A stretch of DNA of 64,000 nt from Alphaproteobacteria bacterium. GTDB lineage: Bacteria > Pseudomonadota > Alphaproteobacteria > UBA9219. Position 1 is the first letter of the stretch. Every line of letters begins with the position of its first letter. The DNA lies in assembly GCA_013286365.1 (NCBI GenBank), contig JABDFY010000003.1:15109-79108 (forward strand), given 5' to 3'. The position numbers and the translations under genes were made by a program. Below the pieces are notes generated by a model. That model was not told the origin of the DNA. It ran no database searches and worked only from the letters and a program-made list of their open reading frames with translations. This document shows, piece by piece, positions 53,568 through 58,514 of the stretch.

Positions 53568-54680
53568 TTAACCTGGCGCTGGAGCCATGGCGCTGGCAGC
53601 CGTTAGTCTTGGCCCGGTAGCGAGACCCGGTCTGGCAGCTCTGGGTTCAAGTGATGAATGCTGTTCTGGTTTCGCTGGCGTGTCTAGGGGCGGTAAACAT
53701 TTATCTGTTGTTTCTGTTGTTGCGGCATCTGGCAGATAGTGCTCACGCATCGTTTCTGCCATCGATACCATCGTGAAAGGTGCGGCATAAGCCAACAATC
53801 CGTTTGTCGTCAAATCAAACATTTGCCCGGCTGCGCTTGTGTCCGTGACGGAAAACTTTTGACGGTCCATCCATTGCCCGCCCGCATATATTGGGTTGCA
53901 TTCCATAGGACGCGGAGGGTGAAGGGCGTAGGCTTCGGCTGTACCATAAGCCAAAGATTCTTCTGGCGAAGGACCTTCACTTATGACGCCCAATAATTTC
54001 ACGAACCCAGAACCTGTCGTGATCGCTAGATTAGCGAGACGGCTGGGCATGCTTTTAAAAAACGCACTCGTATCAGCAGCGCTTTGTTGCTGCCTCATCT
54101 CAATTGTTTTATCAAAATAGCCCGTTTTAGCCAGATGCAGAAATTCCGCATAATTAGCAGGGTTACTCACATCGGCTGCAGCGGCCTTATAGAATTGTCC
54201 ATATACGTAAGCTTCAGGATGCGCTTTGATGTTATCAGACACCAATTTTCTTAAGGCGTCACCGGCAGGCCCTGGCTTATCAAGTTGATCGGCCAACGTT
54301 TGTGCAAATCTCCTGCCATACTCAAGCAGCTGTTCGGGCTGACCCGCGTCCATCGTATAAAACTCATTGAACTCTCGAGCAGCTCTTCTTACACCTGAAT
54401 TACCGTCACCATACCCTACATTGCTATTGAGGATGGCCTCGGCATCATTTCTTAGCTGAGACATTATAAACTGTTCGCGGATCTCTTTGCGTCCTTGAGC
54501 GTATTCTCTAGCTAACCCTGGCAGTGTACGGGCGGCGGTAATAGCGAAAGGGATTGCGATCGCCCAACCTACGCCACCGAAGCCAGCTGGCGTACGAACG
54601 GAGCTTCCAGGCACACTCTCTCCAACAGATACTAGAGGAATATCTGGGCTAGGTATGGCGTTCGCGGGCGACATATCCAT
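53568..54680 (-). CDS. Orphan protein A (370 aa), N-terminal hydrophobic FGGVG segment, no recognised family
   Basis: ATG 54680 is preceded by GAGGTG. The stop abuts the ppdK stop with 0 nt between them. Contains GFGGVGWAIAIPFAITAA near the N-terminus and a Pro/Ala-rich C-terminal tail. Confidence 0.6.
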   Translation of the reverse strand: MDMSPANAIPSPDIPLVSVGESVPGSSVRTPAGFGGVGWAIAIPFAITAARTLPGLAREYAQGRKEIREQFIMSQLRNDAEAILNSNVGYGDGNSGVRRAAREFNEFYTMDAGQPEQLLEYGRRFAQTLADQLDKPGPAGDALRKLVSDNIKAHPEAYVYGQFYKAAAADVSNPANYAEFLHLAKTGYFDKTIEMRQQQSAADTSAFFKSMPSRLANLAITTGSGFVKLLGVISEGPSPEESLAYGTAEAYALHPPRPMECNPIYAGGQWMDRQKFSVTDTSAAGQMFDLTTNGLLAYAAPFTMVSMAETMREHYLPDAATTETTDKCLPPLDTPAKPEQHSSLEPRAARPGLATGPRLTAASAMAPAPG

Positions 54681-54944
54681 AATGAGGCACCTCGGGGCGT
54701 AATTCGCTTAATCGAAAGCCCGTATTTCCTTGAATTTTAGTCATCAATTGGTAAAATCTGTGTTAATAGTTGCAATAAGCTAATTATTACTTTCTCAATA
54801 ACTATTTGATTTATTTGTTAATAAGTTCCATAATTATGTTAAGAAAATCGTAAGTTTTTAATAGTAGATTGGATTTTAGATTAATCAGATCTGTTTATTT
54901 TAAGTAGGCAATTTCATGTCCCTTTGTGGGGAGGGAATTCGATA
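54681..54944. promoter_or_regulatory. AT-rich divergent intergenic region between orphan A and orphan B
   Basis: 264 nt. I counted 41 G+C in the 180 nt 54721-54900 (about 23% GC). It must hold promoters for both divergent genes; no specific boxes assigned. Confidence 0.45.
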
Positions 54945-56999: not shown

Positions 57000-57215
57000 T
57001 GATTGGCAGTTCTCAACAGATTATAATTATATTACGTGCTGATTGGCTTTAGCCATTTAGCTCGTTGATATTTATGCAGTTTTAGTAATTTTATATGCAC
57101 CCTGAAACAAATTATGCAACTGGACTTATAGCTAATATTTATGATAAAGTTACTCTAAATAGGGAATAGTGAGTGATAAGACGAGACTGAAGACTTAAGA
57201 GTACGGAGAAGTAAA
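57000..57215 (+). promoter_or_regulatory. AT-rich spacer upstream of orphan C
   Basis: 216 nt. I counted 56 G+C in the 180 nt 57001-57180 (about 31% GC). Ends with a GGAGAAG Shine-Dalgarno before ATG 57216. Confidence 0.4.
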
Positions 57216-58514
57216 ATGGCTCAGCTAGGTTTTCTCCATAGAGAATTAGAAAAAGGCGCTACTCGCGACTTAACTTCTGTGAGCCCGAGCGGTGAGCCAC
57301 AATTTACTCAGACAGGTCCAATTACATCAGCTGTCTATCGGCAGACGCTCCCAGGCGTTCGCTCTGGTTCGCCGAACGATATTTTCGGACAGGGTCCGGA
57401 TGCAGACTTAGCGGACATCGATAAAAAAAATTCGCGCATTGCAGCGCGGGCTGTAAAGCAGGCCGAGAAGACAAGTAACAAAGGAATCTTGGCCGCGTTT
57501 TTGCTTAATGCGAGCGCGATCTTTGATGACGCGTTAGGCTGGATGCGTAGACATCGTTTGCGCTTAAAATCAGATCAAGAAAAATTAGCTAGAGATAAAG
57601 CTGATGAAGATGCGCGCCGGAGGGCGGACGAAGATAAGAGAGAAGAAAGAAGAAGGGCGTCCGAGGATGACGCAACACGAACACGCACTTCCCAAAACGA
57701 TGATTTGCATAGCGGGTCATCGGCAGATAGGCAAGCTTCGACTTCACCTTCTCGTGATGTGGGTCGTGAACCTGCTTTAGATGAAAGAGTAGCCGTGAGA
57801 CCCGGAGAGGTGCCACGCGCAACCGCGGCCATTGATGTTGTGGGAGATCGAGCGGCAGCTGGAGAAATTCTCGGCGCGGATAGAGATGCGGCTCTGGCAG
57901 TTCGCAGCGTTATGTCTCTCAAAATGCCAAGATTACCTTTTGGTGGTGTTGGTGCTGTTGTCGAAGGCACTGCTTATTTTACGGCGGCGTACGAAGTGAT
58001 CAAAGCGGGCTTCTTAACAGCCGTATATGCCTCTAGCACAAGTAATCCCGACCCCGATGTTGGCGCAGGGGTGTTTCTTAACAGCATAAAATCCGATGCA
58101 ACAGCCTTTCTAAATTATATGGCGCCAACAGAGGCGACAAAGAAAATGTGGGCAGACGGAAGTTATGTTTCAGCGGCTGTCGAGTATTCCAACGTAAAGC
58201 AATTGAGGAAGGACATCAAAGCTGCCGGCGGCGTCATCAAATATGCAAAAAGTGTCGGCAATGGCCTTATCTTTGCCTTCGGAACAATGCTTGGTGATGC
58301 GGAAAGATTTAGTCAGAATGAGAATGAACAGCGTGATGTTGGTACCGGATTAGCGGCAGCAGTTCAGCAGGGAACGGCATTTGCAGCTGCGAGTAACACT
58401 ACGACAAGGCCTGCCGCGGTTACAGTTGCAGACGGAGATGCTGCTCATCAAACAGCAGCCAACCTTGCGATCAAAGTATCAGCGCCGGCACAGCTTGTCG
58501 CGCAACCTCAATAA
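57216..58514 (+). CDS. Orphan protein C (432 aa): highly charged R/D/E-rich central region, FGGVG-containing hydrophobic C-terminal half
   Basis: Good RBS. KADEDARRRADEDKREERRRASEDD charged helix, then LPFGGVGAVVEGTAYFTAAYEVIKAGFLTAVYA. No recognised family. Confidence 0.6.
   Translation: MAQLGFLHRELEKGATRDLTSVSPSGEPQFTQTGPITSAVYRQTLPGVRSGSPNDIFGQGPDADLADIDKKNSRIAARAVKQAEKTSNKGILAAFLLNASAIFDDALGWMRRHRLRLKSDQEKLARDKADEDARRRADEDKREERRRASEDDATRTRTSQNDDLHSGSSADRQASTSPSRDVGREPALDERVAVRPGEVPRATAAIDVVGDRAAAGEILGADRDAALAVRSVMSLKMPRLPFGGVGAVVEGTAYFTAAYEVIKAGFLTAVYASSTSNPDPDVGAGVFLNSIKSDATAFLNYMAPTEATKKMWADGSYVSAAVEYSNVKQLRKDIKAAGGVIKYAKSVGNGLIFAFGTMLGDAERFSQNENEQRDVGTGLAAAVQQGTAFAAASNTTTRPAAVTVADGDAAHQTAANLAIKVSAPAQLVAQPQ

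Follow-up and report, generated by a model that had tools for sequence, protein, structure and literature searches.

A 64-kb stretch of an alphaproteobacterial contig (GenBank JABDFY010000003.1), hereafter the window, carries at positions 53568-58514 three open reading frames (ORFs), labeled A, B and C, that are flanked by the genes ppdK and ygfZ. All three are orphans of atypical composition, and the ppdK-ygfZ slot in which they lie is variable. Our preferred reading, which we hold with about even confidence, is that A-B-C is an ordinary small accessory "ORFan islet", a set of lineage-specific genes lodged in this variable slot, and such islets are a known and common kind of phenomenon. The three lineage-specific genes would be organized in two or three transcription units, with A divergent from B and with C behind an AT-rich upstream region of its own, and the same slot would be empty or would hold unrelated cargo in other alphaproteobacteria. 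We infer that the islet is of foreign origin, that its role is non-catalytic and that its regulation is of the silencer type.

Reading frames, assembly and homology searches

A, B and C are genuine protein-coding genes. When the whole window was shuffled 200 times, the longest stretch without a stop was 259 codons, a length that all three ORFs surpass, and each is free of in-frame stops, with 12-42 stops in every one of their other five frames. The GC contents of the first, second and third codon positions of B (0.64, 0.59 and 0.35, respectively) show a strong asymmetry. At the level of the sequence, the shuffle maximum and the open frames speak against chance as the source of these ORFs; spurious ORFs had been named as a possible objection in the original prediction of the islet. 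Its inventory of one divergent and two co-directional ORFs of 370, 684 and 432 amino acids (aa) was confirmed in coordinates and strands (Table 1), and the Shine-Dalgarno sites that it placed before each ATG are present at a spacing of 4-9 nt: GAGGTG for A (complement of 54688-54693, ATG 7 nt further), GGGGAGGG for B (54928-54935, ATG 9 nt further) and GGAGAAG for C (57205-57211, ATG 4 nt further). The reading frame of B begins at a TTG at 54924, and the ATG at 54945 is the start that agrees with the 684-aa protein in the database.

Sequence identical to the window is present in the Logan assembly of SRR8422039 and in the JGI metagenome 3300020656. The Logan contigs, which come from an independent assembly and are 100% identical to the window, join A to ppdK and C to ygfZ, which excludes binning or a chimeric assembly as the source of the islet. 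Two of these contigs (L081 and L105) end inside the islet, at 54840 and 57322, and gene B lies outside their coverage. The breaks may stem from the tandem repeat in B, from low coverage of AT-rich DNA or from strain heterogeneity; they are not diagnostic, as Logan contigs also end within core genes.

Homologues of A and C were sought through a word-indexed database, and an exhaustive HMMER scan was run for B. In the indexed search of 5.8 billion proteins A, B and C each matched only themselves, and each is the sole member of its 90% cluster, which carries no name. The exhaustive phmmer search with B, covering 1.84 billion representative proteins, returned no non-self match outside Pro/Ala repeat noise: 19 non-self matches reached E≤0.001, all centered on the Pro/Ala repeat at aa 597-670, and the five of these sequences that were read are unrelated proline-repeat proteins. 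No family or Protein Data Bank (PDB) sequence match better than E=0.05 was found for any of the three in Pfam, NCBIfam, PHROGs, PADLOC or PDB. Within these collections, PHROGs gave nothing below E=0.31, and PADLOC gave no defense family for A, B or C, and thus no match to known anti-phage models. Additionally, tblastn found no match to the three in 72,556 plasmids or 50,697 phage records, and scans of IMG/VR returned no relatives.

Single-sequence AlphaFold2 (AF2) models of A and B are of low confidence, with a mean predicted local distance difference test (pLDDT) of 37 and 47, respectively, and Foldseek searches with these two models against PDB and BFVD returned nothing at E≤0.001. The claim that none of the three carries a recognizable catalytic or family motif held in all of the family resources and, for A and B, in the fold searches, and confident homology of all three proteins to housekeeping families was not found. 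Several hits were discarded as noise, namely Nab1, LRR_adjacent and Extensin in the family searches (E>0.1), a SCO2525 methyltransferase (E=0.07), a caffeoyl-CoA O-methyltransferase (E=0.05), and dysferlin and PsaE (E about 0.4-0.8). The proteins show no detectable kinship to one another or to other genes in the window; an FGGVG-type motif that they have in common prompted a comparison for paralogy, in which Smith-Waterman scores set against shuffles gave z values of -0.4 to 0.5, and the motif is attributed to chance. As judged from these searches, the orphan status of A, B and C is solid, most rigorously so for B.

Codon usage and the ppdK-ygfZ junction

As a comparison set we used the 44 other genes of the window, referred to as core, with each gene left out in turn for codon scoring. 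The synonymous codon scores of A (0.003), B (-0.010) and C (0.002) each fall below those of all 44 core genes (mean 0.062, sd 0.025, minimum 0.005). GC at fourfold sites is likewise low, at 0.44 in A, 0.33 in B and 0.43 in C against 0.504 (sd 0.051) in core, and the comparison with core genes that the original prediction had suggested shows a compositional difference in all three. In tetranucleotide distance the islet (0.224) exceeds every other 5-kb segment tested (mean 0.142, sd 0.025), with only segments over a low-complexity gene at 28860-31388 as its nearest rivals. This codon bias is not general to the family-less genes of the window, because a 634-aa and an 842-aa ORF without a Pfam match have normal codon usage. 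The original prediction had also described the ORF bodies as GC-richer, and in bulk they are (51-53% versus about 48%), but the excess is caused by codon positions 1 and 2, through Ala, Gly and Pro, and at position 3 the ORFs have a lower GC content than core genes. Because silent sites and spacers are AT-rich and the codon scores lie below the whole of the core set, the genes would most likely have been acquired from, or have drifted toward, an AT-richer background; alternatively, they may have evolved under weak codon selection.

The two flanking genes are convergent in the window. A scan of a genome collection with ppdK gave at least 80 loci, at 62-76% identity among the matches listed, with the source genome not among them. 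In 13 of the 80 distant alphaproteobacterial loci among those matches, ygfZ lies convergently downstream of ppdK across a gap of 0.13-8.9 kb, and the two genes are directly adjacent in Geminicoccus (127 nt apart) and Thalassospira (about 170 nt). The gap ORFs that were examined encode a HIT protein, a MeaB GTPase, an alpha/beta hydrolase, a methyltransferase and a PAS histidine kinase, none of them related to A, B or C. Convergence of ppdK and ygfZ in 13 of the 80 loci, with differing cargo, indicates a variable slot that is filled here by lineage-specific genes, and from these loci ppdK and ygfZ appear to be an old neighbor pair whose junction accepts different insertions. In the comparison of the junction between genomes, which draws on distant genomes only, the slot is empty or differently occupied in other alphaproteobacteria.

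In these respects the locus resembles the small ORFan islets of bacterial chromosomes, which span a few kb without homologues, have atypical codons and AT-richer silent sites and spacers, and are inserted between conserved housekeeping neighbors at a junction that varies, with no recognizable function. It is unlike most ORFans in the size of its genes, as ORFans are typically short and A, B and C encode 370-684 aa. Classical genomic islands share with it a deviation in codon usage and composition, but the ppdK-ygfZ islet is without their integrase, tRNA and direct-repeat hallmarks. Islets of ORFans turn up commonly wherever a lineage is newly sampled, and this one points to no new mechanism. 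If expressed, A, B and C would represent three sizeable protein families without relatives among billions of sequences and would identify the ppdK/ygfZ junction of Rhodospirillales-like alphaproteobacteria as a place where insertions recur, which would be useful for annotation of the lineage and for work on the origins of ORFans.

Alternative explanations

Several observations weigh against the accessory-islet reading. The islet sits flush with its neighbors: the ppdK stop (TGA, 53565-53567) touches the stop of A (TTA, 53568-53570), and only 9 nt separate the stops of C and ygfZ, which gives the locus the look of an old and settled arrangement rather than of a recent insertion. No integrase, recombinase or other mobility gene occurs in 53568-58514 or its flanks, no tRNA gene lies beside the islet (the sole one in the window is tRNA-Cys at 44728-44801), and flanking direct or inverted repeats are absent above chance level; in this respect the window agrees with the original prediction, which had noted unmarked borders. 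Presence and absence were judged against very distant genomes alone, the closest ygfZ being 51% identical in a metagenome scan and the closest ppdK 76% identical among the matches listed, and no close relative was found. Remote homologues of A and C may exist, as both were searched by word index alone, and the "non-enzymatic" label for A, B and C rests on an absence of evidence, given models with a pLDDT of 37 and 47. The unusual amino-acid composition of the products accounts for much of the oligonucleotide deviation, and AT-rich silent sites could equally fit weak selection on poorly expressed native genes.

The main rival, possible though on balance unlikely, is vertical inheritance: the three would be native proteins that evolve fast, for example scaffolds of the cell pole, the division apparatus or the envelope with disordered linkers, and would be orphan through sampling, with no horizontal transfer involved. 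The lineage is extremely undersampled, as the identities of ygfZ and ppdK given above indicate, and where sampling is this sparse fast-evolving proteins would lose all detectable relatives, so that orphan status is inflated. The flush gene borders and the want of mobility signatures fit vertical descent, and so do a 90-aa Pro/Ser/Ala tail on SecG, a housekeeping protein encoded in the window, and the presence of other ORFs without a Pfam match (18446-20350, 28860-31388, 59486-59893 and 62073-62621). Codon usage argues the other way: the scores of all three genes lie below the entire core set, their fourfold sites are AT-shifted, and the family-less ORFs of 634 and 842 aa are codon-typical, so that a lack of family alone does not explain the bias. 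Ancestrally, moreover, ppdK and ygfZ appear to have been directly adjacent.

The original prediction saw in the islet the look of a secreted-effector or surface-protein locus of a host-associated or predatory alphaproteobacterium, a step that nothing tested here supports. It is doubtful that the three proteins are exported by a non-Sec route, such as a type I or type IV secretion system or a similar one, and that their disordered regions and repeats mediate interactions with a eukaryotic host or prey or at the cell surface. In favor of such a role, they are orphan proteins of low complexity with repeats, their genes have atypical codon usage and lie behind AT-rich regions, and B combines the basic patch RWRRKRTRIR and the linker (PPxAA)n with a pair of Cys, its only two, spaced as C-x18-C at the extreme C-terminus, as expected for an oxidizing compartment. 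A partial model of A also gave weak, non-significant matches (E>1) to the four-helix bundle at the N-terminus of the glucosyltransferase domains of clostridial toxins. By hydropathy and inspection none of the three has an N-terminal Sec-type signal peptide: B and C have no N-terminal hydrophobic core, the segment in A begins only at aa 32 after an acidic N-terminus, and the hydrophobic segments are marginal. Pfam gave no RTX, HemolysinCabind or autotransporter match (E≤1), the sole repeat being (PPxAA)n, and the 64-kb window holds no secretion-system, chaperone or regulator genes, its other genes being housekeeping. Nor does the window show a sign of a host-associated lifestyle; trpE, the pyruvate dehydrogenase complex and other genes in it are typical of free-living bacteria, and low complexity seems to be a habit of the lineage, as the tail of SecG illustrates.

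The tandem repeat proteins (TRPs) of Ehrlichia and the repeat proteins of Anaplasma are lineage-specific low-complexity effectors with tandem repeats, made of acidic Ser-rich units, and with no Sec signal peptide. A, B and C are alike in being low-complexity, lineage-specific and without a Sec signal, and B in having in-frame tandem repeats. They differ in that there is no sequence similarity, that the repeat of B is a neutral Pro/Ala linker and that the gene content of the window looks free-living. Extended Pro/Ala spacers also separate domains in TonB- and TolA-type proteins and in the lipoyl-domain linkers of E2 proteins, and the (PPxAA)n segment of B resembles these; unlike them, B has no TonB_C, TolA or lipoyl domain in Pfam, has another domain order and lacks an N-terminal membrane anchor.

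A more far-reaching version, which we regard as improbable, would make A, B and C the founding members of three new families that form a non-Sec-exported interaction module, an effector or a surface adhesion or scaffold, of an essentially unsampled, deep-branching alphaproteobacterial lineage. The helical bundle, basic patch, aromatic domain, polyproline spacer and Cys loop of B would then work as a binding device, and the AT-rich regions would keep the locus silent until it is induced.

That the islet is a degraded prophage or mobile-element remnant, or a set of open but unexpressed and non-functional ORFs, is very improbable, since its atypical composition and a set of best Foldseek matches in the viral library to tape-measure-like long helical proteins (E=0.012, TM score about 0.1) stand against the empty PHROG, phage-record and IMG/VR searches, the lack of an integrase or att-like repeats, and ORFs of 370-684 codons with no in-frame stop and with Shine-Dalgarno sites, which argue against decay.

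Proteins, spacers and other genes of the window

Under the accessory-islet reading, the products would be Ala/Pro/Gly/Thr-rich modular proteins in which low-complexity, probably disordered linkers alternate with helical segments, with an aromatic-rich domain and a polyproline-type repeat added in B. This modular make-up, with no recognizable enzyme class, suggests action by binding or scaffolding rather than by catalysis.

Table 1. Position and character of the islet genes, their borders and spacers, and segments of the encoded proteins (window coordinates)
Feature	Position	Strand	Description
gene A	53568-54680	-	370 aa
gene B	54945-56999	+	684 aa
gene C	57216-58514	+	432 aa
ppdK, left border	50862-53567	+	Pfam PPDK_N, PEP-utilizers, PEP-utilizers_C
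ygfZ (folate-binding CAF17/YgfZ family), right border	58524-59426	-	Pfam GCV_T, Beta-barrel_CAF17_C
A/B divergent spacer	54681-54944		264 nt, 30.7% GC
spacer before C	57000-57215		216 nt, 32.4% GC
A hydrophobic Gly-rich segment AGFGGVGWAIAIPFAITAA, aa 32-50	54531-54587	-	Kyte-Doolittle 19-residue mean 1.54, borderline
B four helices as bundle or hairpin, aa 145-255	55377-55709	+	AF2 single-sequence pLDDT 73-92
B basic patch RWRRKRTRIR, aa 309-318	55869-55898	+	inside Pro-rich disordered linker
B aromatic-rich region, aa 400-596	56142-56732	+	rich in Trp, Phe, Tyr, His, Asn
tandem repeat in B	56763-56902	+	15-nt unit x9.3, 45-nt super-unit x3.1; Tandem Repeats Finder score 182-210
C highly charged Arg/Asp/Glu/Lys stretch, aa 111-155	57546-57680	+	composition

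Protein B (Ala 18%, Pro 10%) is predicted to alternate helical segments with low-complexity or disordered ones. An Ala/Val-rich helical N-terminus is followed by a Gly/Pro/Thr linker, a helical bundle and the Pro-rich linker with the basic patch, after which come Ala/Lys-rich helices, the aromatic-rich region of about 200 aa, a (PPSAA/PPAAT)n segment and a tail of 29 aa. The bundle is the sole fold predicted with confidence, and its structural matches are generic helical bundles (E>1). The stretch at aa 281-320 has a net charge of +8, and from its sequence the patch within it may be likened to nucleic-acid-binding patches or to ones resembling nuclear localization signals. The aromatic-rich region probably forms a folded domain; it has an order-promoting residue fraction of 0.30-0.42 and a pLDDT below 50, and it is covered by no homologues. 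A marginal hydrophobic stretch (Kyte-Doolittle 1.31) lies at aa 399-420. The tandem repeat encodes (PPSAA/PPAAT)n, likely an extended linker of the polyproline type. The only two Cys of B fall within its last 21 residues (C-x18-C, 56934-56996, aa 664-684), and a disulfide loop between them is conceivable, in which case B would be expected outside the cytoplasm.

Protein A (Ala 14.9%) is predicted to be helical over aa 42-185 and ends in a Pro/Thr/Ala-rich tail at aa 320-370; its AF2 single-sequence model is helical, without a significant fold match. The hydrophobic segment near its N-terminus has an acidic N-terminal flank with a net negative charge and is possibly a membrane anchor or an amphipathic element, not a classical signal peptide. 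Protein C (Ala 16.7%) is free of Cys and runs from a disordered-looking N-terminus through the charged stretch to a hydrophobic or amphipathic C-terminal half and an Ala/Thr-rich tail, with a marginal hydrophobic stretch (Kyte-Doolittle 1.41) at aa 90-108.

The two spacers of the islet have the lengths given in the original prediction and are AT-rich, but its estimate of 23% GC for the first was too low. The GC content of the window is about 48%, and its other spacers of at least 100 nt are all but one at 35-54% GC. The accompanying statement that core genes are 0-100 nt apart does not hold, as other spacers in the window measure 126-306 nt. Sigma-70-like promoter matches occur on both strands of the A/B spacer (+ strand, 54730-54757, with an extended TG, and 54806-54834; - strand, 54861-54833), and the spacer before C has one promoter-like match (57003-57030) and no terminator-like site. 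Having its own AT-rich spacer with such a match, C could be transcribed separately from B. Rfam gave no match in either spacer (E≤1), and the CtrA box TTAA-N7-TTAA is matched once in the whole window, at a site beyond the islet, which is no more than expected by chance. The A/B spacer also contains an imperfect 18-nt direct repeat, TGTTAATAGTTGCAATAA at 54761-54778 and TGTTAATAAGTTCCATAA at 54816-54833, 55 nt apart; this could be an operator pair, and the DNA is so AT-rich that chance also fits. At the convergent ends of ppdK and A (53565-53570) and of C and ygfZ (58512-58526), the genes are 0 and 9 nt apart, which leaves no room for intrinsic terminators, so that transcripts would run antisense into the neighboring genes.

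AT-rich regions in Alphaproteobacteria are typical targets of MucR-type silencers, which bind AT tracts (PMC7710501), and the upstream regions of the islet, which would probably carry promoters of their own, would be natural targets of such silencers. The islet resembles MucR/Ros-silenced loci (PMC7710501) in having upstream regions of 31-32% GC before compositionally foreign genes in a genome of about 48% GC, a likeness that is compositional alone and known here from the 64-kb window.

Elsewhere in the window, the 842-aa ORF at 28860-31388 (+) encodes a Thr/Ser/Gly-rich protein with an N-terminal hydrophobic, signal-like segment, a long Gly-rich C-terminus and no Pfam match; as a candidate secreted or surface protein it is stronger than A, B or C. 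It is preceded by a 306-nt spacer of 35% GC (28554-28859) and is a tetranucleotide outlier like the islet, with typical synonymous codon usage. A 182-aa ORF at 62073-62621 (+), also without a Pfam match, follows a 117-nt spacer of 22% GC (61956-62072) and has a fourfold-site GC of 0.32 and a low codon score (z=-1.9). This ORF stands directly after secD, in the usual place of secF, overlaps the 3' end of a convergent cinA-like gene by 74 nt, and may be another foreign insertion of the islet's kind. The Pro/Ser/Ala-rich C-terminal extension of SecG (26344-26871, +) is about 90 aa long, so in this genome low-complexity tails rich in Pro, Ala and Ser also occur outside the orphan genes. The glycyl-tRNA synthetase gene at 49252-50796 (+) encodes a single-chain class-II enzyme (tRNA-synt_2b and HGTP_anticodon, 514 aa) rather than the two-subunit GlyQS; single-chain glycyl-tRNA synthetase is unusual for Alphaproteobacteria, and a gene for it adjoins ppdK in none of the 80 related loci among the matches listed. 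The 634-aa ORF at 18446-20350 (+), with no Pfam match and with normal codon usage, lies between a 209-aa ORF (17804-18433) and a trxB-like gene.

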